Source: Kiritimatiellia bacterium (GTDB taxonomy: Bacteria; Verrucomicrobiota; Kiritimatiellia; RFP12; JBMNHG01). From it: a stretch of DNA of 64,000 bases. A program made the translations under genes and the position numbers. Where the stretch lies: contig JBMNHG010000002.1 in NCBI GenBank assembly GCA_050950285.1, positions 62,001-126,000 on the forward strand, read 5' to 3'. Of the stretch, positions 44,478 through 64,000 are shown in pieces. Numbering within the stretch: position 1 is the first letter of the stretch; each line of letters opens with the position of its first letter. The notes under the pieces were generated by a model. That model did not search any database. It saw nothing but the letters and a program-made list of their open reading frames with translations, and was not told where the DNA came from.

Positions 44478-44769
44478 GAAGACATTGTCCACATCCACAG
44501 CGAAGGTGGAAACAAAATTCGAGACCCGTCCGGAATCGGCTGGTGGCGGGTGTGCGCCAAAGGGGGGGCACGAGGGACGGGCGTCCGCTCGCCCGCAATC
44601 CGGAATGGCGGGCGGGGACGCTCCCGCCCCGCCCCCACATCCCTGTCGCCGGCCGATGGCGTTTTGAGCTTGACGCCTTTCCACCTCCTTCGCATCATGG
44701 CGGCATGGATGGGGGGTCGGCTCGTCCCGCCGCCCCCGGCATGCGGCAACGGTCTTTGCGGGAGTCTCC

Positions 44770-47700
44770 ATGGCGGATTGTTTCCGAAGATTGCACACGC
44801 TCCGCTCCGCGCGGCCCGCCGCGGATCCGGCCATCCTGGTCGTCCTGGCCGCGGCCCCCCTGCTCCATGCCGCGGAAGCGCCGGACGACCCCCAGTGGCG
44901 GCAGGCCGCCGATCTGTATGGCAAGCGGCACTGGGCCGACGCCGAAAAGGCTTTCCTGGCCTATGCCAGGCGCTTCCCCGCCCCTCCGCGCCGCGCGGAC
45001 GCGCTGGTCGGGGCGGGCGCATGCAGCCTGATGCTGCACGACGCCCCCGCCGCCCGCCGCCACTTCGAGAAGGCGGCCTACGACGAGGATGCCCGGCGCA
45101 AGTCCCCCAAGGCCGTCGCGGAGGCCTTCGACCGGCTCCACGCGCTGCTTCTGGAGGAAGGGGCTTCGGCCGCCCGGCGCGCCCGCGTGCTCGACGACTG
45201 CCGCCGGCGCCTTCCGGACTGTGCCGCGCTCCCGCGGATGCAGGAGCGCGAGGGCGACGCGCTGCTGGCCGCCGGCCTCCACCGCCAGGCGGCGGACCGC
45301 TACGTGTCGGCCGGCGCCGGGCTCTCCCCCGGCGGCACGAACACCCTCCGCCTGCTCCGCGGTTGCTTTTCCGTCAGCCCGCCGCCGCTCGACGGGGCGG
45401 ACGCCGCGCGGCTTGCCGAGGCGGTCCGGGCCAAGCCCGCCTGTTCCGCCGCCCTGTGCGGCCTGCTGTCCGGGCGCCGCGAAGGCTGGCTGGCCGAGGA
45501 CGTCCGGGCGCGGCATCTGCTGGACTCCGGGAAGGCCTCCGAGGCCGCCGCCGCGTGGGAGGCCATGCTCCGCCGCCGCCGCGGCCCGCCCGACCGCATC
45601 GCCTTCGCGCGCTGCGAGGCGCTGGCCGCCTGGAAGCCGGGGAAGGGCATCGAGGCGCTGGAGGAGTGGCTGGAGCGCTACAAGGACTCGCCGCTGCGCG
45701 AGCGCGCCGCCGCCTGCCACGCCCTGCTGCCGGCCCGCCATGGCGACCCGGCCGAGGCGGCATCCCGCCTCGGGGCCTTCCTCGGGGAATACCCCGGCAG
45801 CCGCTTCGCGCCCGAGGCCCGGCAGGCGCTGGCCAGGGCGCGCGGCGCATCGGACCGGCTGGAACAGCTCCGGGCGGCGCAGGCCGCCAAGGAGGAGAGG
45901 CGCCGGCGCGACCCGGCGTCGGCCGACCTCGAACGCGCCGAGTCGCTCCTCTCCCAGGGACGCCACGCCGACGCCGAAAAGGCCTTCCTGTCCTTCCGCG
46001 ACCGCCGCCGCCATCCGCTGTGGGGGCGCGCCTGGCATGGCCTCGGCAAAGCCCGCCACGCCCGGGGCGACACGCAGGGCGCTCTCGCCGCCTGGGACGA
46101 CCTCTGGCGGCGCTCGCTGGCCGACACCAACGTCCTGTGCGCCGCCCGGGCCCGCCGCGCGGCGGGCGACGCCTGGCTCGAGGATCTCGGCGAGCCGGCC
46201 CGCGCCCTGAAGGCCTACGACGAAGCCGCGTCACGCACCGACTTTTCCGACCCCGCCTTCGACCTCAACCGCGGGCTCGCCCTGCTGATGCTCGGGCGCG
46301 CCCCGGAGGCCGCGGCCGTCTTCACCCGCCGCCGCGACGCGTCCGCCGGCGACAAGGCCGAGTTCCTGCGCTGGGACCGCCTCGCGAAGGAGTGCGCCGC
46401 CGGACGCCTGGCGCCGCCCCCGCGCGGCCTGCTCCCCGACCAGCGCCGCGCCCGTACCGACCTGGCGATGGCCGACGCCCTCCTCGCGGCCGGCGAGCCG
46501 GCCCGCGCCCTGAGGCTCTACCGCCGCGCGTCCGCCCCCCTGGCGGGCCACGAGGGGGCCGACCGGTGCGACCTGGGCATGGCGCTCGCCCTGGCCGCCC
46601 TCGGCCGGCCGAAGGAGGCGCTCGCCCTCTACGGGCGTTTCACGGGCGAACACGGGCGCAGCCCGCTGGCCGCCGGAGCCCTGCTCCGCGCCGGCACGCT
46701 CTGCGCATTGCCCCGCGTGAACGACTTCAAAGGCGCCTGCCAGTGGTTCGCCCGGGTCGTCGAAAACCACCCCGGCACGCGCGAGGCCGAGGCGGCGGAG
46801 TTCTATGCCGCCACCCTCGCCTGGCGCGGGCGCAAGTGGGCCGAGGCCGAAAAACTCCACAAGGCCTTCGCCGCCAACCATCCCGGCTCCCCGCTGGCGC
46901 GCGTGGCCCTCGACGAGCGCCTCCCCGCCATCGCCAGGAAATCGCTGGAGGTGCCGACAGGCGGAGGGATCGACCGCACAAACACGGTCTACGTGGCTCC
47001 CGGCAGCCGCAAGCGCTCGGCCTTTCCGATCGTCAAGGAGGGCGTCTATAACGCCTGCCTGGATATCCGCAGCGAACGGGCGTTCAAGGAGTCGCACGTC
47101 GAGGATGTCGACCCGCGCGACGGCACCGCGCTCTGGACCGGGCCCACCGTGAAAAGCCCGTCCTGGCACCGCTACCACCTCTCCGACGCCTACTCCAGCC
47201 AGGAGTACGTGATGGTGCGGGGGACTTTCGCGGAGCCGTCCGGCCGAGGCGGCGGCGCCGGCGGCGGCCTGCCGCCCTTCCGCGTCACCGTTCCGTCGGT
47301 CGACGTCGACTGGGCGGGCTTTGCCGGTCCGGCGGACGAAAACGGGGAGGAGGCCCGCTTCGTCGTCGTGCCGCTCAACACCAACAAGGCGGACGACATC
47401 CGCGGGATCAAGCTCCACGACCCCTTCGACGACGACCAGCGAAACGACCGTCCCCGATTCCCGCATGGCAAGCCCGTCCATCCCGACATCACGCTCCATT
47501 GGGAGGCGGGGAACCCGCTCGCCCTGCTCGGGGGAACCACGGTTTACACGGACAAAATCGAGATCGACGCCGGGGAGGTCGACTGGCCCCTGGATTACGC
47601 CGTCATCCCGCGTCATTCGGCCATTTCCTTCGCCATCGCCGCCGAGGGCCAGGCCGCCGAGGGCGGCAAGGCGGTGGACATCGTCCACGGGCGCATCGTC

Positions 47701-49508
47701 GACGTGGACATCGACGTCGACGCCAACTATGACGGCAAAATTGATGACGCCGACGAGCCTTTGGAGGTGGACCCCGGCGGCTATGTGTGCGTCGGAACCA
47801 ACAACCTGACGCCGGTCACGCTCAAGTTGGAGCCCGTCGGTCTGCCCGGCAAACTGACCCTCTCGGCGACGATGGGAGGGGACCGAATCCGCATCTGGAA
47901 AGACGCCGGGCGCGCGGTCGAGGTGGTATTGACCAATGGCTGCGCCCAGGTGGCTCCCGGCACGCTCTACGTCGAGGGGGTCACCAACAGCGCCGCCCTC
48001 CGCGACGTGGAACTCCGCATCGAGTACGACGAGAACCCACAGGGCCAGGACAATCCCCCTCTTCAAGTGCGAGGACAGGGTGCGGCTGACGGTCGTGAAG
48101 GTGGATCTGGATGTGGATGCGAACAACGACGACGAAATCAACGACGACGACGATCCGCTGGAAGAGGATCCCGGCGGACTGGCCTGCGTCTGCACGAACC
48201 ACCTGGCACCGGTCAAGCTGGCACTCAAGCCCGACGGTCTGACCGGCAAACTGACCCTCTCGGCGACGATGGGAGGGGACCGAATCCGCGTCTGGCGGGA
48301 CGCCGGGCGCATGATCGAAGTGCCACTGACCACCGGCGTCGTCTGGAACGCCGGCGCGGCGGTTCCCGGCACGCTCTACGTCGAGGGGGTCACCAACAGC
48401 GCCGCCCTCCGCGACGTGGAGCTGCGCCTCGAGTACGACGAGAACCCGCCGGGCCAGAGCAACCCCCTCTTCAAGTGCGAGGACAGGGTGCGGCTGACGG
48501 TACTCTCTGTCGATTTGGCTGCAACCGATCTTGATGGAACTGTTACCGACGCCGTTGAGGACACGCCCGGTGCCTTCGTCCATTGGAACTTGGACAATGA
48601 TGATTCCAGTAACAACTCCGTTGGATCCCCGAAGCGTTCAGGGGCGGATTACCTGCAAGCAGGGGCGGCGAAGGTTGCCGGCGAGAACGATTTGAAGTCC
48701 CTTGCAATGTCACTGCAACCGAATCTGAATCAAGGTTCTGTTGTCCTGAACATCGCCAACGCCAAAGCGGCGATCTGGAAAGACGCTGAAAAGGGCAGTG
48801 CGAATCTCGTTCTTGCCGGACCGGGTGACAAGACATGGAATCTTTCGGACGCCGGACAGAAGGCGGATTTCCTCAGTCTATGTTCAAGCCTTCTGGTCGA
48901 GGGGGTGGATGGCGGCACATGCGATATCAAGCTCAGCTACAAGGACACCTTCGGCACCGAAATCTGCTCCGACAAGGTCAAGTACACCTTCATCGCCGCC
49001 GATTGCGGACGGCAGCCAACAACCACTGCTACTCCTAGTCAAAGGGTTCGATTTGAAGGGGTATTCCCAAAACTGGAGCGTTGCGAGTGGAGTATCACGG
49101 ACAACAACTTCCCGAACCGCACGTACAACTGCATCGCCTGGTCTGTCGGAGAGTCGGGGATATGGTACAACCCGGACTATATAGACCAAGTATTTGGTGA
49201 TAATGACGGTATCTTCGAGAACAGCGACATGGACGCCTTCTACAATGCCAAAAAAGGCTGGCATCCGACGGCATCGGGGAGCATCTGATGCGGAAGCCAT
49301 ATACTATCCCTATCCCGGAAATTGGGACTATTTGCATACTCCACCGCCTGAGACTGGCTACCACGGTGCAAAGAAAAAGGGGTGCACATGCGGTGCTGGG
49401 AAGTGGATCATGTTTGAGAGCAAGTGCGGATCATGGGAAAAGATCGAACACGTGTGGGATCAACTCAATGGTTCGAGCTATGGCTCTGCAGGACGGTTCT
49501 ATAAGTAG
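44770..49508 (+). CDS. Putative full-length polymorphic toxin: signal-like N-terminus, TPR carrier, Asp-rich Ig-like repeats, papain-like CT1. Two +1 frameshifts (about 48055-48059 and 49276-49279); about 1578 aa if corrected
   Basis: ORF-track pieces 44770-48534, 47936-49288 and 49194-49508 join by successive +1 shifts. First shift shown by comparison with sister repeats (AAT CCC C CTC TTC vs AAC CCC CTC TTC). TPR-like motifs (F..EYPGSRFAPEA, VVENHPGTREAEAA). Confidence 0.75.
47177..48095 (+). repeat. Constant region copy 1 (about 0.9 kb; other copies at about 50317-51235, 55475-56350, 59300-60163)
   Basis: Near-identical DNA encoding GGLPPFRVTVPSVDVDW...DIVHGR.VDVD.DVDAN.DG...TLYVEG...RDVELR.EYDENP....PLFKC.D.V.LTV. 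Confidence 0.95.
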
Positions 49509-49519
49509 GAGTTTCGATT

Positions 49520-50218
49520 ATGAAGACCTTTAAGACTGGGCTTTGCGTTGGCATTCTTCTCGCTCTTGGATCTTTTTGGTGCCGTGGTTCCGACGAGCAG
49601 GTGCATAGATTGTTCGAGGAACGTTACGCAGCGTGGAGGACGTGGGTAAAAGAACACCCGTATTCGTCAACATACATGGCAAACAAGGAGTTTTATGCCA
49701 TAGTCAACCTTGGTGTACCCGCGATTCCATTGATCGTTGAGAAGATCGAGCAGAACCCTGAGGATTTTCACTTGGGCAGTGCGATCAGCATTATTTCAAA
49801 ACGGAGGTTCGCGAAGTCGGATTGGCCCCAAGACAAACTTGGCGACTCTATAACGGCGGCAAGCATGTATGTGCAATGGTGGAAGGAAGGCCGTTTTAAG
49901 ACGGGAGAGCGGTTTGTGGAACTGTATGGCGAATGGAAGTCATTGAAGGCGGGGAAGAAGGACAAAGAGGCGGAGGAAACATACCGGCGGATTATTGATC
50001 TTGGTATTCCGGCCTTGCCCTACCTCATTGAGAAGGTTGAGCAACAACCCGAGTTTGTGCAGGGTATCTCGAGGTTGTCCGATGGAGCGTTGCCCCCAAC
50101 GGCGACGGGTGCCGATTGCAGACAATGGTGGGAAAAGAACAAGCAGAAGTTTGAACTGCCGCCCCAATCTGAATCGAAGCAGAGTTTCGAGAAGAATGAA
50201 TCGTTGATCTGCCGATAA
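49520..50218 (+). CDS. Putative immunity protein for CT1 (exported, internal two-fold helical repeat)
   Basis: Directly after toxin stop (TAGGAG SD); signal peptide; low GC; repeated (I/V)xLG(V/I)PA(I/L)P..(V/I)EK..Q.PE ... QWW. Confidence 0.7.
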   Translation: MKTFKTGLCVGILLALGSFWCRGSDEQVHRLFEERYAAWRTWVKEHPYSSTYMANKEFYAIVNLGVPAIPLIVEKIEQNPEDFHLGSAISIISKRRFAKSDWPQDKLGDSITAASMYVQWWKEGRFKTGERFVELYGEWKSLKAGKKDKEAEETYRRIIDLGIPALPYLIEKVEQQPEFVQGISRLSDGALPPTATGADCRQWWEKNKQKFELPPQSESKQSFEKNESLICR

Positions 50219-50349
50219 CTTCTCCAGGGGCTTAAGGGGTCAGGAAAAATGTGTCTGGTCGACCATGATTCGCTCGGCGCGGGCGTTCTCTGGACCGGCC
50301 CGGACCCCGAAACTCTCACCTCTCCGACGCCTACTCCAGCCAGGAGTAC

Positions 50350-52461
50350 GTGATGGTGCGGGGGACTTTCGCGGAGCCGTCCGGCCGAGGCGGCGGCGCC
50401 GGCGGCGGCCTGCCGCCCTTCCGCGTCACCGTTCCGTCGGTCGACGTCGACTGGGCGGGCTTTGCCGGTCCGGCGGACGAAAACGGGGAGGAGGCCCGCT
50501 TCGTCGTCGTGCCGCTCAACACCAACAAGGCGGACGACATCCGCGGGATCAAGCTCCACGACCCCTTCGACGAGGACCAGCGAAACGGACGCCCCCGATT
50601 CCCGCATGGCAAGCCCGTCCATCCCGACATCACGCTCCATTGGGAGGCGGGGAACCCGCTCGCCCTGCTCGGGGGAACCACGGTTTACACGAACAAAATC
50701 GAGATCGACGCCAGGGAGGTCGACTGGCCCCTGGATTACGCCGTCATCCCGCGTCATTCGGCCATTCCCTTCGCCATCGCCGCCGAGGGCCAGGCCGCCG
50801 AGGGCGGCAAGGCGGTGGACATCGTCCACGGGCGCATCGTCGACGTCGACCTCGACGTTGACGCCAACCACGACGGTGCCATCACCGGCGCCGACGAGCC
50901 CTTGGAGATGGACCCCGGCGGACTGGCCTGCGTCTGCACGAACCACCTGACGCCGATCAAGCTCACGCTTCAGCCCGCCGGACTGACCGGCAGGCTGACC
51001 CTCTCGGCGACGATGGGAGGCCAGCGCATCAAGGTGTGGAGGAACGCCAACCGGACCGGCCAGATCGATCTGTCCCAACGCGGCAATGTGGCGCCCGGCA
51101 CGCTCTACGTCGAGGGGGTCACCAACAGCGCCGCCCTCCGCGACGTGGAACTGCGCCTGGAATACGACGAGAATCCGCAAGGCCAGAACAACCCCCTCTT
51201 CAAATGCGCCGATGTGGTGCGGCTGACCGTCATAAAGGTAGACTTGAAAGAAGTCTCCTTCAGCGGGACGAAATACCACACCGTCAAGAAAGACGACGGG
51301 AGTCAGGACTACACAGCCCCTCACTGGCAGGACAATTCCTCGCCGCTTGATGGAGATGCCGACGACGCGGGCGACAAGAAATATCCGATCTGCTTCACGC
51401 GAAACACCAAGATGAAAGTGTCGGCGAAGTGGCGGATTGAACCGTCCGGTCTTGGTGTCACGATCAAGATCAAAGGAGACGGTCCCGGCAACCTCGACTT
51501 CCCGGAGACAACAGCGGCGATCAGCGGTAATGACTTGACCATCACGGATGTGGAATGCTCGAACCCATTCGCCAACGAGATTGATTTCTTTGATCCAATG
51601 TCTATCTCGTGGAGTTATTCGATGGACGGCGGCTCGACGTGGTGCAGTGCCGGAACAAGCGCCAATCAAACCTACGTGACGCTTGGCGATCCATTGACCA
51701 CGGTCTATCACACGCTGGTTCATCTTGGATGCAAGAACGCTGACGGGGAGAATACGGCAACAAACTGCACCTCGAGGATATGGATCGAATTCACTGACCG
51801 GGACGTCCGTCGTGTAGATGGCGTCCAGCTTACCTATTACGCATCCTACACGTGCGGCAACGTTACGACGGCTAGCCTTCTTGCCAATGGTGACGGGCAG
51901 TGCGGTGCCTGGGCGAGTCTGTTTATTGACATGCGAAAAGTACAAGGTATTGATGACACGGACGAGTACGTTATCTTTCGCCCGATCACGCCATATGGAA
52001 TTCCACAAAGCTATGTCGGATTCTTGGTTAAGAACTGGACGTTCACAGGAGCAGGAACAAGCGGCTTCGCCACCCATCCGTATATGAACATACCTGATTT
52101 TCCATTGGTTGGAGGAGACAGCTACAACTGGAAGTTCTCGGAAGTTGACGATGCGACGGGGATTCCGGGGCAAGGGAATGCAAACCCAGCATCTCTGTTC
52201 AACAATCATCAAGTTGTCATTAGCGGAGAATACTATGATCCCTCGTGTGGGATAAAGCACAGCAGACTGCAGGATATAGACGACAATGCCATTGATGGCT
52301 ACTACATCGGGCCGATTTCTTATCCTGTCGATGAGCCAGCAGTGAACCTTGACTTGAATGGCGATGGAGACAAGACAGATCTACAGGTGGATACTGGTGT
52401 TTACCTGATACAAAAGAATGCTGCAGGCTTGGATATTTGGGAACAAAGGTTTGACTGGTAG
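50350..52461 (+). CDS. Orphan toxin cassette 2: constant region plus transglutaminase-like CT2
   Basis: Intact 703-aa ORF beginning inside the repeat; GDGQCGAWASLF ... FNNHQVV ... YYDPS (Cys-His-Asp). Confidence 0.75.
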   Translation: MMVRGTFAEPSGRGGGAGGGLPPFRVTVPSVDVDWAGFAGPADENGEEARFVVVPLNTNKADDIRGIKLHDPFDEDQRNGRPRFPHGKPVHPDITLHWEAGNPLALLGGTTVYTNKIEIDAREVDWPLDYAVIPRHSAIPFAIAAEGQAAEGGKAVDIVHGRIVDVDLDVDANHDGAITGADEPLEMDPGGLACVCTNHLTPIKLTLQPAGLTGRLTLSATMGGQRIKVWRNANRTGQIDLSQRGNVAPGTLYVEGVTNSAALRDVELRLEYDENPQGQNNPLFKCADVVRLTVIKVDLKEVSFSGTKYHTVKKDDGSQDYTAPHWQDNSSPLDGDADDAGDKKYPICFTRNTKMKVSAKWRIEPSGLGVTIKIKGDGPGNLDFPETTAAISGNDLTITDVECSNPFANEIDFFDPMSISWSYSMDGGSTWCSAGTSANQTYVTLGDPLTTVYHTLVHLGCKNADGENTATNCTSRIWIEFTDRDVRRVDGVQLTYYASYTCGNVTTASLLANGDGQCGAWASLFIDMRKVQGIDDTDEYVIFRPITPYGIPQSYVGFLVKNWTFTGAGTSGFATHPYMNIPDFPLVGGDSYNWKFSEVDDATGIPGQGNANPASLFNNHQVVISGEYYDPSCGIKHSRLQDIDDNAIDGYYIGPISYPVDEPAVNLDLNGDGDKTDLQVDTGVYLIQKNAAGLDIWEQRFDW

Positions 52462-52470
52462 GAGACGATT

Positions 52471-53181
52471 ATGAGCACAATTCAATTCAAACAGTTGATC
52501 GCAAGGATGCTCCTTATGAGCTTTTCGTTGTTGAGCTATGGGCAAGAACTCCAGTCTTTGCAAGAGCTAATACGTGAAGCGACTCCGGAGTTGCCTGGGG
52601 CAAAGGTGCCTAATGGTAATGATGCGTCTCGCATTGCTCAAAAGGCGTATGTGGAAAAGATGCGGAGCCTTTCTGCGTTTGAAGGATGGATGCAACCAAA
52701 GCTTGTTGAACTTGGTTTTGAAATCAACGATTTTGCCGAAGTAGGTGATGCCGTATGGGAAGTTCGTTTTACCAATCTGAACTCAAAGGGACACCAAGCG
52801 CTTCGCGCCGTTTTATGGGTTCACGCTGAGACAAAGGTTGTCCACTTTGTCTGTGGGCCGTGGGACACCGCAGGGAAAGCCGCAAAGCCGTTGCAGATTG
52901 AAGGAACCAAGGTCTCGGCACAAGCAGATGCGAAGCGCATCGCGTTTGAGGCATACGCGAAGAAAATGCGCGCCGAGGTGCTTGCCAATGAGGGCGTGCA
53001 AGACATTTCTGTTGTCACGCTGGGCTATGACGTACCCGGCTTTGCCACAGAAGGTGAGCGTATCTGGGAAGCTCGCGTCCTGACCATTGAGGGAAAACTG
53101 CGAGCAATCATATGGGTTAATCCCCGTTCAGAGGATGTGCACTTTGTTTGCGGTTCGTGGGAAGAGAAAACATCGGAATAG
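52471..53181 (+). CDS. Putative immunity protein for CT2 (exported, tandem duplicated domain)
   Basis: TAGGAG SD overlapping the toxin stop; signal peptide; two copies of RIA..AY..KMR...LG.....FA..G...WE.R...LRA..WV......VHFVCG.W. Confidence 0.72.
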   Translation: MSTIQFKQLIARMLLMSFSLLSYGQELQSLQELIREATPELPGAKVPNGNDASRIAQKAYVEKMRSLSAFEGWMQPKLVELGFEINDFAEVGDAVWEVRFTNLNSKGHQALRAVLWVHAETKVVHFVCGPWDTAGKAAKPLQIEGTKVSAQADAKRIAFEAYAKKMRAEVLANEGVQDISVVTLGYDVPGFATEGERIWEARVLTIEGKLRAIIWVNPRSEDVHFVCGSWEEKTSE

Positions 53182-53417
53182 CTCTGTTCATCCCCGTCGT
53201 GCCCCGATCCGCGCCCGTACACGAAAAATGCGGGGCATTTTTTGCGCCGGTTGCTCCGCTGATGCGGTGCGCCGCCGGTCGAGCGTTGCCATGAATGTGA
53301 TCGTGATGACCGGAGGTGCTTAATCCGAAGTTCCAGCGATTCCCAACAGCCTGCTCATTCGCAAACCCTTGCAGGCAAGCATTCTACGCGCTTTCTGGCG
53401 CCATTTTCCCGTTCCGC

Positions 53418-55160
53418 TTACATGGAAACGCCCTTGTTGTTCCGCCAGCAGGCGTGGTCCGCCTCGAGCAGTTGGAAGGCTTTGGCCTGGAAGGCGTTCG
53501 GCATCGTGTCGCGGGTAAAGCGCACGGCGGTTCTGCCTTCTCCGAAACAGCATGTGTTGCGCACCTGTGTCGATAGCGCGCCAAGCAGCCCGTCCCAGCG
53601 CCGGAGCCGCAGTCCGTCAGTGGTGCGTTTCCGGGCGCGCTTGCGCTTGAGGTTTTCCGAGGGCTGCGCCTTGGCGACGGGATCGCGGCTGGCGCGGGCG
53701 GCTTCCAGTTCCTCGTCGGCGTAGAGCAGCGGGGCCAGGGCCTGGCGCATGTGCCATTCCACGTAATAGGCGAGCATGCACAGCAGCACGTGCGCGCGCA
53801 CGCGGTCCTCCAGGCGGTGGTAGATCGGGCGGACGAGCAGGTCGACGCCCTTGAATGTTCTGAAGGCCTGCTCGACGTCGCCCAGGCTCTTGTAGGCGCG
53901 CACCGCGTCCTCTGCGGAAAGCGACTCGGGCGTCTCGCTGGTGCGCACGACGTAGATGCCGTCCAGGGCGGCCTCGCGGGCGATGGATTCCGTGTCGCGC
54001 TCCCAGCCGAAGTGGTTGTCGGCGATGTCCAGCCTGAAGTGCTTGGCGACCTTGTAGCGGTTGATCACGCGTCCCGCCCTGACGCCGATCTCGGCTGCCG
54101 TCAGGGGTTTCCTCCTCCGGCGCCCCACATGGTCGCGCAGCTTGACGAGATCCTTCTCGGTGGACTCCAGCAGCTCGCCGCGCATGCGGGCGCGGTCCAT
54201 CGCCAGCAGCGGGTTGTAGCAGGCCACCAGCCGTTCGCCGGGGAAGTCGGGATGGATGATCTCGGCCAGGTTGCCCTGCGTGAACAGCGGCGCACCGGAG
54301 GGATCGCGTGTCTCCAGCAGCCTGCGGATGTCCGAGCTTCGCAGGCAGGATATCCAGCCGCAGCCCTCCTGCTGCCGCAGGCGGTCGATCTGCGTGTTCG
54401 TCAGCATGCCGCGGTCACCCACGAAGACGAACCGCGCTATGCCGAAGCCCCCGCGCAGCCGGTCGATCTGGTCCGGCACCGTCACCGGGTCGGCGGTGTC
54501 GCCGGGATACACCCGCACCGCGACCGGCCTGCCGTCGGTATCGGTCATAAGCCCGTAGACGATGCCGGGCAGCTTGAGGCCGTCGCGGTTGTATCCGCGC
54601 TTTGCCAGGGGGCATTGCTTGCCGTAGTAGGAGCTGCTCGATACGTCGTACAGGACTGTCGCCCCCTCGGCAAGGTGCCGCCCGGCCAGCTTGCGCTCGA
54701 TGAAGGGCTGGCGGGCCGCGAGCCAGTCCATCGCCGCATAAAGGTCGTTCTCGTCCACGTCCTGCACGCCGAACTCCTGCGCGAGCGTGGAGTCCCCGAA
54801 CAGGGAGACCGTCTCCAGCTTCGAGCCCGGCTCTATTATGCGCTGGGCTATCATCGCCAGCACGATGTCGCGCTCCGGGCAGGGCTTGGACGACACCAGA
54901 TCCCGCATGCCGAGCCGGCTCATTGCCGTGCGGACGGCCCTGACGTGGCCGCATGGCAGGGATCGCTCGATCTCGAAAAGGCTGTCGGCCTCCACAAGAT
55001 GCTCGCCCTTGAGCGCGGCGCGCAGCGCCGCCACCGCCTCGGGCGGCAGCATCGACAGGTTGGCAAGCGTGCGCTTGACGGTGCGCCCGCCCTCGCGGCA
55101 GCTCTCGCGCAGCAGGACTGCGGGCGGGGATTTGCGGTTCGGCACGATGTCAATGTACAT
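53418..55160 (-). CDS. IS1634-family DDE transposase
   Basis: LLRES.REG..VK.TLANLS, LY.AMDWL, LYDVSSSY, VGDRGM, YK.L..VEQAFR..K...L.VRPIYHR...RVRAHV..CMLAYY. Confidence 0.94.
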   Translation of the reverse strand: MYIDIVPNRKSPPAVLLRESCREGGRTVKRTLANLSMLPPEAVAALRAALKGEHLVEADSLFEIERSLPCGHVRAVRTAMSRLGMRDLVSSKPCPERDIVLAMIAQRIIEPGSKLETVSLFGDSTLAQEFGVQDVDENDLYAAMDWLAARQPFIERKLAGRHLAEGATVLYDVSSSSYYGKQCPLAKRGYNRDGLKLPGIVYGLMTDTDGRPVAVRVYPGDTADPVTVPDQIDRLRGGFGIARFVFVGDRGMLTNTQIDRLRQQEGCGWISCLRSSDIRRLLETRDPSGAPLFTQGNLAEIIHPDFPGERLVACYNPLLAMDRARMRGELLESTEKDLVKLRDHVGRRRRKPLTAAEIGVRAGRVINRYKVAKHFRLDIADNHFGWERDTESIAREAALDGIYVVRTSETPESLSAEDAVRAYKSLGDVEQAFRTFKGVDLLVRPIYHRLEDRVRAHVLLCMLAYYVEWHMRQALAPLLYADEELEAARASRDPVAKAQPSENLKRKRARKRTTDGLRLRRWDGLLGALSTQVRNTCCFGEGRTAVRFTRDTMPNAFQAKAFQLLEADHACWRNNKGVSM

Positions 55161-55166
55161 GGGCTC

Positions 55167-55195
55167 AATTTAGCAGACCTTTCAGTCTCATGCAA
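55167..55195 (-). promoter_or_regulatory. Transposase sigma70 promoter, probably leaderless
   Basis: Minus strand TTGCAT-17 nt-(TGC)TAAATT-6 nt-ATG. Confidence 0.55.
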
Positions 55196-55345
55196 GCGTA
55201 AAAATGGTGTTTCGTCAAAAAAGTTATTAACAATTACATGGGCGCAAATGGAACGGATTTTGCTGCCTTAGGGGTGCCGGAATGCCGCTAAATCAAGAAA
55301 ATATGGCCGTTTCGGGCATGAAAGAGCCGCTGGAACTTCGGCTTA

Positions 55346-57504
55346 ATGTTCGTTGTATCGCCTACGCGGTATGTTACGCCGCAAGCGGAGCATGCGTCGC
55401 GCCTACCGCTCCAGCGAATGCTCCGTTACGCGCGTCGAAAGGGCTACAAGGCTCACGCCTCGACATTTGACAAACGGGGAACGTTCGAGGAGCCGACCGG
55501 CAGCGGCGGCGCCGGCGGCGGCCTGCCGCCCTTCCGCGTCACCGTTCCGTCGGTCGACGTCGACTGGGCGGGCTTTGCCGGTCCGGCGGACGAAAACGGG
55601 GAGGAGGCCCGCTTCGTCGTCGTGCCGCTCAACACCAACAAGGCGGACGACATCCGCGGGATCAAGCTCCACGACCCCTTCGACGAGGACCAGCGAAACG
55701 ACCGTCCCCGATTCCCGCATGGCAAGCCCGTCCATCCCGACATCACGCTCCATTGGGAGGCGGGGAACCCGCTCGCCCTGCTCGGGGGAACCACGGTTTA
55801 CACGAACAAAATCGAGATCGACGCCGGGGAGGTCGACTGGCCCCTGGATTACGCCGTCATCCCGCGTCATTCGGCCATTTCCTTCGCCATCGCCGCCGAG
55901 GGCCAGGCCGCCGAGGGCGGCAAGGCGGTGGACATCGTCCACGGGCGCGTCGTCGACGTGGACCTCGATGTCGACGCCAACCACGACGGCAAAATTGATG
56001 ACGCCGACGAGCCTTTGGAGATGGACCCCGGCGGCTACGTCGGCGTCTGCACGAACAAACTGACCCCGATCACGCTGACGCTGAAGCCTGCCGGCCTGCC
56101 CGGCAAACTGACCCTCTCGGCGACGATGGGAGGGGACCGAATCCGCATCTGGAAAGACGCCGGGCGCGCGGTCGAGGTGGTATTGCCCAATGGCTGCGCC
56201 CAGGTGGCGCCCGGCACGCTCTACGTCGAGGGCATTGCCTCCAGCGCGACCGCCCGCGACGTGGAACTCCGCATCGAGTACGACGAGAACCCGCCGAACC
56301 AGAGCAACCCCCTCTTCAAGTGCGAGGACAGGGTGAAGCTGACCGTACTACTAACCCGGCCACAAATAGCGTTGCTCACGGAGATTCAGGCATTGGGAGC
56401 TGGAATTTGGAGTTGGGAAAGGGGCATGGACATTCCTGTCCGTGTCACGGGTTGGAAAACCCGTTCCCCTGTTTTGCAGTATGAATTGTGGCCGAGTTAG
56501 TAAGAGTGAATATCACGGCCTACCGTCCGACGACCGAATTACCTGCCTACGGGAATCCATTCCTGCGACACGAAGTGCCCGACGACCTGGAAGAATCGCC
56601 GGGGGCAGGAATCCGGGTCAATGGGGACACGGAATCGTCGGCGAACGAGAACGACTTGATAGAGGTGCAGCTCGACGTTGCACCGTTCCCCATTCCATCG
56701 GGGCTGACCTACATTCTCAAGCGGAACAACTCGAATATCAGGGTATGGGACAGCCAGACCATGGGCTCCGCGTTGCTCGATTCCGGTACGGAAGCGACGA
56801 TCACGACAAGCAGTTCGCCCATGTCGGTCTGGGTCGAGAATCCAAGCGGCGGCAGTGCCGACCTTGAGCTAATCGCCCGGTCTGGGACGACGGATGTCTG
56901 CTCCGACAAGATACACTTCTATCCCTGCTCAAGCGTGGTGGTTCTCTTCGAGGGTGAGTTCGGTGCCCCATCTGATCCGCCAGGAAGTGGTATCAGCACG
57001 CTGGCACTCGCCGCTTACACGAACGGGTATGATGTTCACGTCTATGCCGAGCCGGACCTTTTTGAAACGCCAAATACGGAAGAGGCGGCCTTTGCTGAAA
57101 TCGACAGTGCCGTTGAGAATCGAGGCGTAACAGCGGTTGCTATCATTGGCTACAGCCACGGCGGGGGCTCGACTTACAACGTCTCCGTGCGGCTAGATGC
57201 CGACGCCACGGCTTTCAACCTGGCTTTTACCGCATATATTGATGCGATTTCGCAACCGCTTGCCAATATAACTGCGGAAAACCGTCGTCCGGTCGGTTCC
57301 ACTTTTCACGTCAATTACCATCAAGTCGCGCAGATGAATGATGCGCCACTTTTCTTGGATGGCGCTCCAAGCACACCTGCAGGCGCTGGCTTTGAGGATA
57401 ATGTCGATGACCCGACAATAACGGAATCCCATACAACGATTGATGACGCACCGGTCGTCCAGGACGGGATTCGTACTCGCCTGTTTCAGCAGGTGAATCG
57501 CTAA
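55346..57504 (+). pseudogene. Orphan toxin cassette 3: constant region plus alpha/beta-hydrolase (lipase-like) CT3, split by a MITE into ORFs 55346-56500 and 56488-57504
   Basis: VAIIGYSHGGG nucleophile elbow, YIDAI, ESHTTIDD. Removing 152 nt gives one 668-aa ORF (...LTVL-RVNITAY...). Confidence 0.78.
56351..56500. mobile_element. 150-bp MITE with 15-bp TIRs and TA target duplication (IS630/Tc1-like)
   Basis: TA|CTAACCCGGCCACAA ... TTGTGGCCGAGTTAG|TA (one mismatch); no transposase inside. Confidence 0.85.
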
Positions 57505-57517
57505 AGAGAGGATTCTT

Positions 57518-58366
57518 ATGAACTGTAGATTATTGCTTTGGTTTCTCGGTCTTAGCTCTATTGTGTCGATGCTTTCATTCGGGGCTGATATCCAGTCCGA
57601 AAACCGACCGGCAGAGGTAATCCCTCTTGCCCCAGACATTCAACAAGAGATCGTGCGGGTAGTTACGGCGCTTTCGGCAGGCGACATGCCAGAAGAGGCC
57701 GTTTGGAAAATCGTGCGGGATTTCAAAGGTTTCAAAAACAAGCCGCCCGAGGAACTGCTTCTTCAGGTTTTGGCGGTATACGGCGGCAAGGATGAATACC
57801 GAACCAATCCGCAAGCGGAGAAGGCGAAACGTCTCCTGTTTTCGAGTCTTCTTCAGGAAATGACGCCCTCGAACATCGTCCTGGCCGTGGCTCCGAAATA
57901 TGAGCAAGCATCTGATCCGAAATTGGAGTACAGCCTTCGTCAAGCCCTTGGCATGGCGACATTGAGAGGCGGTCGCGTCGATGTAATGAATCCGAATTTC
58001 GATGCGTTTTCGGCCTACATTGCTCAACGCAAAGAGCAGCCGCCGGGGAAGCTTGTTGGCTTTATGTATGGCCACAACCCGCAAGCTGCTGTGTTGTCGA
58101 TGGCCCGCGTATACGGCGACAAAGCCGTCGAAACGGAACTTGCCGAACAACTCAAGGGCGATCCGAAGGCCATGCTTCAATCCCTTGCTACCCGGCCCGA
58201 ATGGTGGGTGCGGTTGTATGTCGTCGAGATGTTGAAAAAGAATCCCCAGTTGCACGATAAGGCCGTCCTCAAGAAACTTGAGCAGGATGCTGATCCGCTG
58301 GTTCGCGAACAAGCCGACAAGGTGCTTTCCGGAAGGGGAAACAGGGGAGAGTCCCTTGAAAACTAA
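57518..58366 (+). CDS. Putative immunity protein for CT3 (exported, helical/HEAT-like)
   Basis: GAGG SD 13 nt after the lipase stop; signal peptide; WWVRLYV.E.L...L.KLEQDADPLVREQA. Confidence 0.7.
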   Translation: MNCRLLLWFLGLSSIVSMLSFGADIQSENRPAEVIPLAPDIQQEIVRVVTALSAGDMPEEAVWKIVRDFKGFKNKPPEELLLQVLAVYGGKDEYRTNPQAEKAKRLLFSSLLQEMTPSNIVLAVAPKYEQASDPKLEYSLRQALGMATLRGGRVDVMNPNFDAFSAYIAQRKEQPPGKLVGFMYGHNPQAAVLSMARVYGDKAVETELAEQLKGDPKAMLQSLATRPEWWVRLYVVEMLKKNPQLHDKAVLKKLEQDADPLVREQADKVLSGRGNRGESLEN

Positions 58367-58405
58367 GGGCGACCCCCAACGCCTGCTTGCCTGTGCAAAA
58401 AAGCA

Positions 58406-58996
58406 TTGGCTTTTCACAGGGGCTTTGTTTTCATGTGTTTTGCTACGGCAGACTGTGTGTTGGCGGACCCCATGAAGTGTGATCGGTCTTTCCTCTCTAC
58501 GAGACGGGAGGCCGCGAAGATCAAAGAGAAGAAGAGGATGGAGCTTTCGTCCGAAACGCTACCACAGAAAACGGAAGAAGCCCTCTCAACGCTTCAGGAT
58601 AACGGGTCCACGCCAGCCGACCGCAACAAGGCTGTTCTTGCCCTCGGGAACTCAGGCGACGAGACAGCTATACCGGCCCTGCTTGCAGAACTGGCGAGCG
58701 TGAGTGACCCAGTCGTGAAGCAGAATACGATCACGATGCTTGGCAGACTCCGCGCGAAGCAAGCCGTGCCCGATCTCCTGAAAATTCTGGATACCCCTGT
58801 AACTGGAAACGTATCCGACGAGGGAGAGTGGGAAGCGATCTTTCGCAGGGAAGCGACAAAGGCGCTTGGCCGTATTGGCGATCCCTCAGCCCTGGTGACG
58901 CTGGGGAAGGCCATGGACGCTTCCCACGAATACCAGAGCGTCCGGGATGCTGCCAGGACTGCGATACGGATGATCGAGAAACCGCTTGAACAGTGA
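58406..58996 (+). CDS. HEAT-repeat protein (second putative immunity or accessory gene); start uncertain
   Basis: RNKAVLALGNSGDETAIPALL, LGRLRAKQAVPDLLKIL, REATKALGRIGDPSAL..L. Confidence 0.75.
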   Translation: MAFHRGFVFMCFATADCVLADPMKCDRSFLSTRREAAKIKEKKRMELSSETLPQKTEEALSTLQDNGSTPADRNKAVLALGNSGDETAIPALLAELASVSDPVVKQNTITMLGRLRAKQAVPDLLKILDTPVTGNVSDEGEWEAIFRREATKALGRIGDPSALVTLGKAMDASHEYQSVRDAARTAIRMIEKPLEQ

Positions 58997-59062
58997 CATC
59001 ATCCCTCCTTCCGGCACTACGCCTGCTTACGCGGGCTCATGCCGTTGCCCTACGCTCCGCAA

Positions 59063-61037
59063 CCGTACACGAAAAATGCGGGGCATTTTTTGCGCCGGTT
59101 GCTCCGCTGATGCGGTGCGCCGCCGGTCGAGCGTTGCCATGAATGTGATCGTGATGACCGGAGGTGCTTAATGTTCGTTGTATCGCCTACGCGGTATGTT
59201 ACGCCGCAAGCGGAGCATGCGTCGCGCCTACCGCTCCAGCGAATGCTCCGTTACGCGCGTCGAAAGGGCTGCAAGGCTCACGCCTCGACATTTGACAAAC
59301 GGGGAACGTTCGAGGAGCCGACCGGCGGCGGCGGCGGCCTGCCGCCCTTCCGCGTCACCGTTCCGTCGGTCGACGTCGACTGGGCGGGCTTTGCCGGTCC
59401 GGCGGACGAAAACGGGGAGGAGGCCCGCTTCGTCGTCGTGCCGCTCAACACCAACAAGGCGGACGACATCCGCGGGATCAAGCTCCACGACCCCTTCGAC
59501 GACGACCAGCGAAACGACCGTCCCCGATTCCCGCATGGCAAGCCCGTCCATCCCGACATCACGCTCCATTGGGAGGCGGGGAACCCGCTCGCCCTGCTCG
59601 GGGGAACCACGGTTTACACGGACAAAATCGAGATCGACGCCGGGGAGGTCGACTGGCCCCTGGATTACGCCGTCATCCCGCGTCATTCGGCCATTTCCTT
59701 CGCCATCGCCGCCGAGGGCCAGGCCGCCGAGGGCGGCAAGGCGGTGGACATCGTCCACGGGCGCGTCGTCGACGTGGATCTCGATGTGGACGCCAACCAC
59801 GACGGCAAAATTGATGACGCCGACGAGCCTTTGGAGGTGGACCCCGGCGGCTATGTGTGCGTCTGCACGAACCACCTGACGCCAATCAAGCTGACGCTGA
59901 AGCCTGCCGGCCTGCCCGGCAAACTGACCCTCTCGGCGACGATGGGCGGCCAGCGCATTAGAGTCTGGCGGAACGCCAACCGCACCGGCCAGATCGATCT
60001 GTCCCAACGCGGCAATGTGGCGCCCGGCACGCTCTATGTCGAGGGCATTGCCTCCAGCGCGACCGCCCGCGACGTGGAGCTGCGCCTCGAATACGACGAG
60101 AACCCGCCGGGCCAGAATAACAGCCTCTTCAAGTGCGAGGACAGGGTGAAGCTGACCGTACTACTAACCCGGCCACAAATAGCGTTGCTCACGGAGATTC
60201 AGGCATTGGGAGCTGGAATTTGGAGTTGGGAAAGGGGCATGGACATTCCTGTCCGTGTCACGGGTTGGAAAACCCGTGCCCCTGTTTTGCAGTATGAATT
60301 GTAGCCGAGTTAGTAAGAGTGAATATCACGGCCTACCGTCCCACGACCGAATTACCTGCCTACGGGAATCCATTCCAGCGACACGAAGTGCCCGACGACC
60401 TGGAAGAATCGCCGGGGGCAGGAATCCGGGTCAATGGGGACACGGAATCGTCGGCGAACGAGAACGACTTGATAGAGGTGCAGCTCGACGTTGCACCGTT
60501 CCCCATTCCATCGGGGCTGACCTACGTTCTCAAGCGGAACAACTCGAATATCAAGGTATGGGACAGCCAGACCATGGGCTCCGCGTTGCTCGATTCCGGT
60601 ACGGAAGCGACGATCACGACAAGCAGTTCGCCCATGTCGGTCTGGGTCGAGAATCCAAGCGGCGGCAGTGCCGACCTTGAGCTAATCGCCCGGTCTGGGA
60701 CGACGGATGTCTGCTCCGACAAGATACACTTCTATCCCTGCTCAAGCGTGGTGGTTCTCTTCGAGGGTGAGTTCGGTGCCCCATCTGATCCGCCAGGAAG
60801 TGGTATCAGCACGCTGGCACTCGCCGCTTACACGAACGGGTATGATGTTCACGTCTATGCCGAGCCGGACCTTTTTGAAACGCCAAATACGGAAGAGGCG
60901 GCCTTTGCTGAAATCGACAGTGCCGTTGAGAATCGAGGCGTAACAGCGGTTGCTATCATTGGCTACAGCCACGGCGGGGGCTCGACTTACAACGTCTCCG
61001 TGCGGCTAGATGCCGACGCCACGGCTTTCAACCTGGC
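59063..61037 (+). repeat. Direct repeat copy B of 53215-57224
   Basis: Near-identical to copy A but lacks the IS1634 element. Confidence 0.92.
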
Positions 61038-61068
61038 GGGCCCCCATAATCGACGGAGAAAACCATGA
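59171..61068 (+). pseudogene. Orphan toxin cassette 4: constant region, MITE, 3'-truncated lipase CT (ORFs 59171-60304 and 60319-61068)
   Basis: GGAGG-6 nt-ATG start; same MITE; identity with CT3 stops at 61037, losing the predicted Asp/His region. Confidence 0.78.
60164..60313. mobile_element. Second copy of the 150-bp MITE
   Basis: TA|CTAACCCGGCCACAA ... TTGTAGCCGAGTTAG|TA; same insertion base as in cassette 3. Confidence 0.85.
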
Positions 61069-61775
61069 GAACGTTCATTTGCCTTGCAGTGATGTGTGCG
61101 ACAACGGGCTTGTGCGCAAGTGGGATTGCGGATGATGTTACCACGAACAAAACGACGACCGGTACAACAACCCCGCAGTTATCGAACATGCCGGAATCTG
61201 TACATGCGATGATTTCTCGCCTTAGCCAATTGGAGCGGGCGGCGGCTATGGGCTCCGGGAATCATGCTGAACGCGAGAAATTGAGAGAAGAAATCGACAA
61301 GGCGGGCATCGATATGACGAATAGCAATGGGGCCAATACAGTCGTTTCGACGAGGCGCGCCGAACTCCTCTCAACGCTTGCGAGTCTGTACGCAGAAAAT
61401 GGTCGTGGCGTCGGGAGTGCGGTCAATCCCACGCCCAAACAGAAACAGGCCATTGCCCGGATAAGGGAGGTGCGAAAGGACTTGGCGGAAGCGATGTCAA
61501 TCCCCGTTTGGGAGGGAGACAAGTGGATAGATGGCCGTTCTCTTGCGTTCAACAACATCGATCTGCCGAATCATGTCAAGAATGCGTTGGTACAATTGAA
61601 TTTCTGGGAGCAGAACTATGGCAGCCTTTCGATCCCTGAGGAGTTGCAGGGTGTAGTGGCAGAATCAGGTGAAGTGTCCGCTGCCATTTCCACATTCAAG
61701 AAGGAAATAGAACGGGCGGGTTTTGGTCTGGAGTTGGATCGATCTCTTTGCATTTGGAAGATAAGAAAAGATTGA
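61065..61775 (+). CDS. Exported hypothetical protein, putative orphan immunity protein
   Basis: GGAG SD; signal peptide MRTFICLAVMCATTGLCASGIA; low GC; follows cassette 4; no visible similarity to the CT3 partner. Confidence 0.65.
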   Translation: MRTFICLAVMCATTGLCASGIADDVTTNKTTTGTTTPQLSNMPESVHAMISRLSQLERAAAMGSGNHAEREKLREEIDKAGIDMTNSNGANTVVSTRRAELLSTLASLYAENGRGVGSAVNPTPKQKQAIARIREVRKDLAEAMSIPVWEGDKWIDGRSLAFNNIDLPNHVKNALVQLNFWEQNYGSLSIPEELQGVVAESGEVSAAISTFKKEIERAGFGLELDRSLCIWKIRKD

Positions 61776-61838
61776 GCAGAATTACAAGTAGGCCTGTGCC
61801 GCGAGCGATCAAGACGGTTCTTGAAGCACTACAAAAAA

Positions 61839-61850
61839 CTGGAACTTCGG
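61839..61850 (+). mobile_element. Solo IS1634-type terminal repeat
   Basis: CTGGAACTTCGG is identical to the terminal 12 nt of the IS at 55330-55341. Confidence 0.45.
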
Positions 61851-61887
61851 TTTAGACGACGATCATTCGCCGCTTCAAGGTCACACA

Positions 61888-63351: not shown

Positions 63352-63352
63352 A

Positions 63353-64000
63353 TCACTCCTGTCTGCGAGGTAGTCCATACCAGGCACACTCAGCCATGAA
63401 GAATTCACTGATGTTCAAAGTGCGGTAGTCGTAATGGCGAATGACACGAGACACTATCTCGCGATACTTCTCGTCACCGGAGAGGCCCAGTATCATTGCA
63501 TGCGAAAGAGGCTTTGTCATCTGGCTTCTTTCGTAGCCCTTACGAAATCCGAGTATATTCGGATCACCCGAGGAAGCGACACGCTCCGCGATTTTCTGTG
63601 TGGTCTGCCTCTCCCATTTATAGCCCGTTCGCCAATTGCCATACTTGAACGGCATTTCGACAACCGTGTTGTCATAACCAAGGCGTGACGGAATATTCAA
63701 AGCGGCGTGCTCGGCATTGCGCAAAAGGCCACGACGATAACGCGCCTTCAGAAACGGATCGCTCTCCATGCGAACAAGTTCAGCCAGGCACCCCTGGGCA
63801 CAGACGTAAATCCACAGACCGGCATCCTCAACCGGGAATGACGGCATATCAAGGACATAGCCTTCCTCGCAAACCCTCCATCGCGGCAAAATCGTTCCCG
63901 GAGTCTTTTCGTCCTTCGCATGAATATATTTCGCCAACCATCCTGAATACGGATCAATCTCATCCAGCATGCGAAGCAAATAGAGGTAATGAGACGCATT
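63353..64000 (-). CDS. Hypothetical protein, C-terminal part (starts beyond the right edge)
   Basis: Open frame to the window edge; stop abuts the next gene start. Confidence 0.65.
   Translation of the reverse strand, partial: NASHYLYLLRMLDEIDPYSGWLAKYIHAKDEKTPGTILPRWRVCEEGYVLDMPSFPVEDAGLWIYVCAQGCLAELVRMESDPFLKARYRRGLLRNAEHAALNIPSRLGYDNTVVEMPFKYGNWRTGYKWERQTTQKIAERVASSGDPNILGFRKGYERSQMTKPLSHAMILGLSGDEKYREIVSRVIRHYDYRTLNISEFFMAECAWYGLPRRQE

Follow-up and report, generated by a model that had tools for sequence, protein, structure and literature searches.

The window analysed here is a stretch of 64,000 nucleotides (nt) from an uncultured Kiritimatiellia bacterium (assembly GCA_050950285.1, contig JBMNHG010000002.1, positions 62,001 to 126,000), and forms part of the contig called C2 below. 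Between its positions 44770 and 61775 it holds one long gene with a signal-like start, a tetratricopeptide repeat (TPR) part, a constant region and a C-terminal domain, or tip, followed by three cassettes that repeat the constant region ahead of their own tips, with small genes behind the tips. Judging from its sequence, the locus is probably a polymorphic toxin-immunity system of the Sec-dependent class, built on a lineage-specific carrier of TPR and immunoglobulin (Ig)-like domains, in an uncultured Kiritimatiellia bacterium of digesters.

To our knowledge, interbacterial toxin systems are mostly known from Proteobacteria, Firmicutes and Bacteroidota, and for Kiritimatiellia, common inhabitants of digesters, landfills and guts, almost nothing of the kind has been described. 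Our literature search found no paper on such a system in Kiritimatiellia, nor any on DUF7689, the family matched by the long gene's tip. Of the papers it found linking polymorphic toxins with Lentisphaerae, none appears to concern this system.

A preliminary description of the locus had proposed a polymorphic toxin-immunity layout, and this is supported by twelve groups of tips, apparently exported partners, orphan cassettes, a mosaic constant region and a tip-partner module found in another genus (locus L016). It had also suggested that the carrier may be undescribed. This holds for the carrier itself, which belongs to no catalogued family, and not for the kind of system, which PMC3482391 already describes. 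By profile searches, the carrier and most of the tips are uncatalogued, and they probably belong to a described class.

Architecture of the locus

The source genome comprises 4.05 Mb in 12 contigs, with a guanine-cytosine (GC) content of 66% and a completeness of 99.35%. Public metagenome runs from 16 studies contain the window's stretch. The array consists of the following elements, given with lengths in amino acids (aa) and with the open reading frames (ORFs) where a cassette is interrupted by a miniature inverted-repeat transposable element (MITE)-like repeat.

44770..49508, forward strand: full-length carrier-toxin gene; in the assembly, frames 44770-48534 and 47936-49288 and a third frame to 49508
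44770..44880, forward strand: signal-peptide-like N-terminus MADCFRRLHTLRSARPAADPAILVVLAAAPLLHAAEA, read from the translation
44900..46950, forward strand: TPR-type helical repeats, about 700 aa; Pfam TPR_16 at 1.5e-14 and further TPR families
47176..48102, forward strand: constant region (domain A and Asp-rich domain B), the homology common to carrier and cassettes
48101..48501, forward strand: diverged second copy of domain B, 81% identical to 47704-48093
49115..49505, forward strand: DUF7689 tip of the full-length gene, in two frames divided by an extra G at 49276
49520..50218, forward strand: small signal-peptide gene, 232 aa, GC 0.50; candidate immunity gene for the DUF7689 tip
50317..52461, forward strand: cassette 1; constant region 50317-51239 and predicted transglutaminase-fold tip 51241-52458
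52471..53181, forward strand: small signal-peptide gene, 236 aa, with an internal tandem duplication; candidate immunity gene for the cassette 1 tip
55346..57504, forward strand: cassette 2; constant-region ORF 55346-56500 and tip ORF 56488-57504, with a MITE-like element between them
57518..58366, forward strand: small signal-peptide gene, 282 aa, with a weak HEAT match; candidate immunity gene for the hydrolase-like tip
59171..61068, forward strand: cassette 3; near-duplicate of cassette 2, with a MITE-like element at 60161-60315 and a tip truncated near 61037
61065..61775, forward strand: small signal-peptide gene, 236 aa, at the array end; its own toxin is missing

Pfam TPR matches span aa 329-628 of the main gene, which has Asp-rich repeats too, and NCBIfam adds sub-cut-off YbgF-like and BamD-like matches in the TPR part. 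Cassette 1 has neither a signal peptide nor a TPR part. The main gene's constant region recurs at 50317-51239 (89.8% identity over 929 nt), at 55475-56343 (94.0% over 873 nt) and at 59323-60156 (90.5% over 839 nt). Across all four copies in the window, a core of about 450 nt is 95-100% identical, and a 300-nt block reaches 98-100%. This agrees with the mid-gene region of about 0.9 kb that had earlier been seen repeated in three cassettes. The GC content falls from 0.75-0.80 in the TPR part to 0.65-0.70 in the constant region and 0.45-0.58 in the tips and small genes. Given the copy identities and this GC drop, the repeat architecture of the window is real and far beyond chance.

The preliminary description was right on the long gene's signal-like start, TPR repeats, Asp-rich repeats and lower-GC tip, but as assembled this gene is not one open frame. 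Its frame is broken twice by a single extra base, first in a run of C near 48055 and then in a run of G at 49276. The contigs of four public runs from four studies were compared over 46500-50300. The base at 49276 is missing from all four runs. Near 48055 only run X9 has coverage, and one of its contigs (depth 6 of 12.6) lacks the base. Since both shifts lie in homopolymer runs and the extra bases are absent from public runs, they are likely homopolymer assembly errors or strain differences, not biology, and a programmed frameshift in the main gene was set aside on the same grounds. Genes elsewhere in the genome may carry similar homopolymer artefacts.

Positions 7-50 of the DUF7689 profile (Pfam PF24738) match 49115-49261, and positions 77-118 match 49362-49505 in the other frame; dropping the base at 49276 joins both halves into a single frame. 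The main tip passes the family's gathering score, with 23.0 to 25.1 bits versus a cut-off of 22.6. Without the extra base, the tip extends to a stop at 49506-49508, 11 nt ahead of the small gene at 49520, as opposed to 232 nt in the assembly. This small gene matched no family in Pfam or NCBIfam. In the cassettes, the distance between tip and small gene is 9 nt (52461 to 52471), 13 nt (57504 to 57518) and a 4-nt overlap (61068/61065), so the spacing of about 15 nt first reported for every tip applies to the cassettes as they stand and to the main gene only in its corrected form.

Recombination and fold of the constant region

The four window copies of this region form a mosaic. At its 5' end, the main gene and cassette 1 are 100% identical and cassettes 2 and 3 are 99% identical, with 55% between the two pairs. 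At alignment columns 776-925 the pairs are different: the main gene now pairs with cassette 2 (95-97%), and cassettes 1 and 3 form the other pair (83-97%), identity between the pairs being 71-77%. The window piece 58434-59172, which comprises 739 nt of a partner gene and spacer, is 99% identical to a piece of an array on contig C8. In locus L016, from another genus, a tip and its partner are 94.6% identical over 2406 nt to those of the array on contig C11, as against 76-79% in the adjoining constant region. The mosaic copies, the 739-nt piece and the L016 module are marks of cassette exchange within and between genomes.

Contigs that depart from the constant region at 48094-48105 and go on in letters that this genome lacks may carry further tips of related strains. 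They could alternatively stem from other species, and are taken as a hint only.

An AlphaFold2 model of the constant region (11-sequence alignment) is all-beta, with a pLDDT of 74 and a pTM of 0.71. Among its Foldseek matches (270 at E<=0.001, Ig-like folds being common), the best are to the Ig-like N-terminal half of the peptidylarginine deiminases (PADs) PAD2, PAD3, PAD4 and PADI6, at E values of 8e-8 to 6e-6. The Pfam families PAD_N and PAD_M were not matched by the constant region, and no deiminase domain follows it. Domain B starts with VDxDxDANxDGxIDDxDEPLE.

Arrays elsewhere in the genome and diversity of tips

The constant region has 25 matches in this genome, distributed among five arrays and remnants. 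Apart from the array in the window, these are located as follows.

C4:142.5-150 kb: array
C2:288-298 kb: second array of this contig
C8:160-171 kb: array
C11:296-302 kb: array
C2:458 kb: remnant

Full-length TPR carriers lead two of the five arrays, namely those of the window and of C4. The C4 head gene is intact, with an open frame of 1517 codons and a TPR part 98.8% identical to the window's, and a signal-peptide ORF of 169 codons begins about 17 nt past its stop.

An all-against-all BLASTP divided the 14 tip-bearing ORFs into 12 groups, some tips having in common just one further Ig-like domain ahead of the tip. In the window, the tips of cassette 1, the main gene and cassette 2 do differ from one another, as had been proposed for all of them, but cassettes 2 and 3 carry the same tip: they are 96.2% identical over 1886 nt (55341-57224 versus 59166-61037). 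Motifs read from the tips, with two HExxH (HEMLH and HEEKH), several of Cys type and one GxSxG, suggest two HExxH enzymes, several Cys-type enzymes and a GxSxG hydrolase. Apart from DUF7689, no tip matched a Pfam family at E<=0.01.

The cassette 2/3 tip, which also gave no Pfam match, looks alpha/beta-hydrolase-like, with the motif GYSHGG. An Atlas model of the cassette 2 tip reached TM scores of 0.44-0.50 to thioesterase, VirJ, cutinase and lipase clusters, to be read as a lead only. For the C4 tip the protein Atlas offered nothing to follow (scores of 0.76 at most), and comparing three tips by sequence with solved structures yielded nothing useful, the best hit being an unrelated protein at E 0.055.

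Behind each of the 12 tip ORFs checked comes a small ORF whose start is signal-like, at gaps of -4 to +17 nt. As listed by array, tip ORFs with a partner number four in the window, one on C4, three in the second C2 array, three of four on C8 and two on C11; no partner was identified after the last, partial tip ORF on C8. Partner domains include HEAT_2 (3.8e-14 and 2.2e-6, with two further weak matches below cut-off) and ankyrin (1e-18). The small gene closing the window's array (61065..61775) has no second copy that we could find in this genome. At locus L003 (C8:166539-168176), the constant region passes straight into a signal-peptide protein and the tip is absent, which looks like a deletion fusing a carrier remnant to a partner gene.

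One expressed gene standing ahead of silent partial copies, with a recombining constant region in common, is also what would be expected if silent cassettes served to vary a surface protein, for antigenic reasons or as a phage receptor, and not to deliver toxins. We hold this to be highly improbable: the ends that vary are complete enzyme domains, unrelated to each other, whose catalytic residues are conserved, and every end has its own partner gene, which variation alone would not need.

The transglutaminase-fold tip of cassette 1

The tip of cassette 1 is predicted to be a transglutaminase-fold Cys-His-Asp enzyme. Its AlphaFold2 model, from a 30-sequence alignment, has a pLDDT of 95.6 and consists of a beta-sandwich and a transglutaminase-type core. 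C221 does not vary among the 30 sequences, and conservation of H323 and D333 is 90% or more; the three residues follow the order C, H, D. Foldseek matched the model to the transglutaminases TG3, TG2 and factor XIII at E values of 6e-6 to 1e-3, and VIA returned Z scores of 7.7 and 7.6 for its top matches, likewise transglutaminases, followed by 6.4 for TglA, 6.0 for LapG and 5.1 for protein glutaminase. The tip itself does not match Pfam Transglut_core.

Homologues of this tip number 238 of similar length and 103 longer ones, and occur in Elusimicrobiota, Phycisphaerae, Planctomycetes, Acidobacteria and others. They include fusions to PKD, cadherin-like, TSP3, LTD, Calx-beta, TIG, fn3 and RTX modules; in none of the homologues does the tip domain itself have a Pfam family.

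A metagenome scan for the tip, run with a 9-sequence alignment, retrieved 54 loci (L026-L079), of which 48 have at least 450 nt downstream. By a crude signal rule, an ORF with a signal-like start lies between -40 and +50 nt after the tip gene in 37 of these 48 loci (29 of 40 unique ones), versus 31 of 182 control ORFs from the same loci. In most cases, then, the tip gene has behind it a small gene that is exported or lipoprotein-like, and whose family varies.

Relatives of the carrier and of the constant region

Related loci were found in metagenome-assembled genomes of Kiritimatiellae and of "Lentisphaerae bacterium", from digesters and a sheep omasum. The window's own genome counted, the whole constant region matches 11 of 41 genomes of the order, and domain A matches 2 of 401 sampled genomes of the phylum; the constant region was not matched in the one other genome of the genus that was sampled. 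These counts come from samples and do not prove absence elsewhere. Searching 1.84 billion representatives with the constant region retrieved 269 proteins at E<=1e-3, 37 of them at E<=1e-30.

The supposition that homologues of the constant region always end in the same C-terminus fails, given the twelve tip groups and the relatives that end in a GDSL lipase or in a Toxin-deaminase. In a Pfam scan of these relatives (35 library matches), one protein with TPR and domain A terminates in a GDSL lipase. Domain B is also tandemly repeated in giant proteins: P0015, of 2941 aa and with a signal peptide, has 11 domain B stretches and a C-terminal Toxin-deaminase at 8.9e-17. In other toxin-like proteins domain B seems to act as a stalk module.

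Within the range of lengths searched, 5.8 billion clusters contain just eight relatives of the TPR carrier. Of these, one bears the name "tetratricopeptide repeat protein" and two (P0075 and P0374) have a GDSL lipase end.

The architecture is conserved in other genera at 46-64% protein identity. Locus L018 has a TPR open frame of 1368 codons followed by two small genes with an orphan cassette between them, and L019 has an open frame of 1886 codons, a signal-peptide gene whose end is HEAT-like, and a fragment of an orphan tip.

Secretion and delivery domains

Scanned against Pfam and NCBIfam, the carriers, tips and partners matched only TPR, HEAT, ankyrin, DDE transposase and DUF7689. No Rhs/YD, TPS/FHA, PAAR, VgrG, LXG or MafB domain was found by either library, nor a VENN motif by Pfam, whose scan covered 16 ORFs of the window and 21 of the other arrays, in accordance with what the preliminary description reported for Rhs/YD, FHA, PAAR/VgrG, LXG and MafB. 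It had also noted no secretion genes nearby; the 20 upstream ORFs of the window that were scanned are housekeeping genes.

Neither VipB/TssC, which forms the sheath of type VI secretion systems (T6SSs), nor Hcp was found in this 99.35% complete genome, and delivery by a T6SS was rejected for it on the absence of both. Secretins have six matches elsewhere in the genome, which do not by themselves show the route used.

Evidence against a toxin system

Several results weigh against a toxin-immunity system. The known toxin-trafficking domains were not found in the scans above. Three of the five arrays have heads that keep the 5' region and lack the hydrophobic core of a signal peptide and all or part of the TPR, and signal peptides in general were called by an eye-based heuristic and a crude hydrophobicity rule. 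Both fold assignments are moderate, with TMq values of 0.40-0.51 between the constant region and PADs and Z scores under 8 for the cassette 1 tip. No main carrier joined to a cassette tip was seen in contigs, which cannot show such alleles. A homologue of the partner at 52471-53181 follows the cassette 1 tip in just 8 of the 54 metagenome loci, those with the closest tips. The locus is also much damaged: MITE-like elements have inserted in cassettes 2 and 3, the cassette 3 tip is truncated, and an insertion sequence (IS) lies by cassette 2. Finally, the 103 longer homologues of the cassette 1 tip bear adhesin-type modules (TSP3, LTD, Calx-beta, TIG, fn3 and, in two cases, RTX), and none of them has RHS, PAAR or LXG. 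With no trafficking domain and with adhesin modules, this tip family could therefore consist of ordinary exported enzymes, each paired with an inhibitor.

The main rival reading is as follows: exported or surface enzymes for feeding or envelope remodelling, displayed on a TPR/Ig-like scaffold, with the partners as dedicated inhibitors or chaperones and the arrays as decaying duplicated paralogues. The tips do look like hydrolases (a transglutaminase/peptidase fold and an alpha/beta hydrolase, with GDSL lipases in relatives), the cassette 1 tip homologues sit on adhesin-like exported proteins free of toxin-delivery domains, and many copies are broken. Against this reading, cassettes that have neither signal peptide nor TPR keep a near-identical recombination core, and tip and partner travel as units across genera. 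Twelve unrelated enzymes with private exported partners are unexpected in a feeding family, the low-GC tips beside a high-GC carrier suggest foreign, exchangeable modules, and one domain B protein ends in a classical toxin deaminase. We consider exported enzymes with private inhibitors unlikely, and a polymorphic toxin-immunity system remains the preferred reading.

Mobile elements, decay and neighbouring genes

The remaining features of the array are mostly mobile or repeated elements.

53200..53324, forward strand: 127-nt spacer ahead of cassettes of the 'MFVVSPTRY' class; also at 59046-59172, C8:166474-166600 and C8:170359-170485
53320..55346, reverse strand: IS with a DDE transposase at 53418-55160 (580 aa); Pfam DDE_Tnp_1 at 2.9e-11
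56348..56502, forward strand: 155-nt MITE-like repeat of cassette 2, exactly at the boundary between constant region and tip
58434..59172, forward strand: 3' fragment of another HEAT-repeat partner gene with spacer; 99% identical to C8:165862-166600

The IS has 19-nt inverted ends (53320-53338 and 55328-55346) with TTAA on either side, and adjoins the start codon of cassette 2. In both cassette 2 and cassette 3, the 155-nt repeat causes a break into two ORFs. This element is MITE-like: it has terminal inverted repeats and a highly stable fold (z -4.6), and occurs in 55 genomic copies of at least 138 nt with 89-100% identity, on both strands. In places its sub-units of about 121 or 66 nt stand in tandem, for example at C6:189003-189762 and C2:967486-968164. 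No Rfam family matches it, and an Rfam scan of 44000-64000 returned a single chance match, mir-4928, with 30 bits versus a threshold of 100. Reading cassettes 2 and 3 as split genes or as translationally coupled was rejected, the interruption being this repeat with its 55 near-full genomic copies.

The ORF at 58406-58996, in the partner-gene fragment, matches Pfam HEAT_2 at 4.7e-15. The copies of the 127-nt spacer, 95-98% identical, always lie directly upstream of cassettes with the leader 'MFVVSPTRY...', and the spacer may mark the boundary of a cassette or serve as a promoter or as a site of recombination.

The IS, the two MITE insertions, the truncated tip and the two frameshifts of the assembled main gene would all fit a non-functional relic, produced by segmental duplications driven by IS and MITEs, together with errors in assembling a genome from a metagenome; four runs do in fact demonstrate at least one homopolymer error. 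Such a relic is nonetheless improbable, as C4 has an intact 1517-codon gene with its partner, the frameshifts fall within homopolymer stretches and independent runs contradict them, and other genera retain the architecture at the 46-64% protein identity given above.

Upstream of the main gene, a divergent ORF of about 1400 aa on the reverse strand (40635-44924) has two DUF3857 and two transglutaminase-core stretches. Its longest call overlaps the carrier start by about 150 nt, and its true start is probably further in. The C4 array is not flanked by such an ORF.

Proposed mechanism and significance

In the mechanism we propose for a toxin-immunity system, the expressed gene would combine a signal peptide, about 700 aa of TPR, the constant module and a variable C-terminal enzyme domain (DUF7689 here). 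The constant module would consist of two or three Ig-like, calcium-site-bearing beta-sandwich domains, like those in the N-terminal half of PADs. The downstream cassettes, promoterless or export-less, would each hold the constant module with another enzyme tip and a small signal-peptide gene, and homologous recombination in the near-identical constant module would move a stored tip with its partner gene onto the expressed carrier; both the direction and the frequency of this swapping are inferred here. The toxin would then pass the inner membrane via Sec and leave the cell, probably at the surface or through a type II-like pathway. It would act on envelope targets of competitors, such as peptide or lipid bonds, and the exported partner would block the matching tip within the producer's periplasm. 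All partners have signal peptides, and those tips that can be recognised resemble peptidases or lipases, so the targets probably lie in the cell envelope. The sequences themselves show the architecture, the mosaic copies, the variety of tips and their link with partners, and the models show the fold of two parts.

A more ambitious version of this mechanism, which we put forward tentatively and would not yet bet on, takes TPR and PAD-like Ig module together as an undescribed platform for diffusible, bacteriocin-like toxins of the Planctomycetes-Verrucomicrobia-Chlamydiae (PVC) group. Such toxins would be exported via Sec and type II secretion, dock on competitors and carry periplasm-acting enzymes into them, drawing on a pan-genus pool of tips and immunity genes. 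Most of the toxin families would be uncatalogued, and one transglutaminase-fold toxin with exported immunity would extend across many phyla.

The locus offers a dozen candidate toxin domains, one of which has a Pfam family (DUF7689, of unknown function), along with matched, exported candidate antidotes. It also offers a widespread and confidently folded transglutaminase-type family with a conserved exported partner, both unnamed. If the toxicity is true, polymorphic toxins would be extended to a new lineage, and new envelope-targeting enzymes and inhibitors would be gained.

Comparison with known systems

Rhs and CdiA loci consist of a full-length gene and orphan tip-immunity modules homologous to it, and recombination exchanges their tips. 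The present locus is similar in that a full-length gene is followed by orphan tip modules homologous to it. Unlike Rhs, however, it has no YD/RHS repeats, PAAR, VgrG or VENN, and its genome has no T6SS sheath or Hcp. Unlike CdiA, it has no TPS domain or FHA repeats in Pfam and NCBIfam, and the 20 upstream ORFs are housekeeping genes. The homology block also differs from both, being a predicted folded Ig-like module and not a repeat shell.

The T6SS Tae/Tai amidases and Tle/Tli lipases, as well as colicin M and pesticin, are periplasm-acting toxins whose immunity proteins have signal peptides, and bacteriocins such as colicin M and pesticin combine N-terminal uptake or binding parts with a C-terminal killing domain. 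By analogy, the peptidase- or lipase-like tips with signal-peptide partners of this locus resemble Tae/Tai, Tle/Tli and colicin M. They differ from these effectors and bacteriocins in that there is no T6SS, no sequence relation was detected and no gene of lysis or SOS type was seen; uptake by a receptor would be conjecture.

To the N-terminal Ig-like domains of PADs, the constant region bears a moderate resemblance in its modelled fold, with Asp-rich, calcium-type motifs ahead of a C-terminal catalytic domain in both; sequence identity is about 10-16% and the catalytic part that follows is variable, not a deiminase. The cassette 1 tip is like transglutaminase/papain-fold enzymes (TG2, TG3, factor XIII, TglA, LapG and protein glutaminase) in having a beta-sandwich followed by a predicted Cys-His-Asp core, and unlike those transglutaminases in its lack of a Pfam Transglut_core match and its Z scores under 8.

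The closest likeness is with the Sec-dependent ('T2SS') class. As set out by Zhang et al. 2012 (PMC3482391), its members have signal peptides only, TPR among their repeats and lineage-specific N-terminal domains (MAFB-N); Imm-HEAT, Imm-Ank and Tox-TGase are listed there, HEAT and ankyrin being immunity types. The locus differs from the examples of this class in having no MAFB-N (DUF1020), MicroscillaN or APD matches in Pfam and NCBIfam, and from MafB in lacking an upstream gene like MafA: what lies upstream differs between the window array and the C4 array. Its carrier is instead made of TPR and PAD-like Ig domains, and all of its partners carry signal-like starts. In common with the class, for example Neisseria MafB, as PMC3482391 presents it, the locus has a signal peptide, a lineage-restricted N-terminal part with TPR, polymorphic C-terminal domains, a small gene downstream of each tip and orphan cassettes. 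Of the marks by which the same source recognises polymorphic toxins, the exchangeable C-termini, the adjoining partners that travel with them and the orphan cassettes with signs of recombination are found here.

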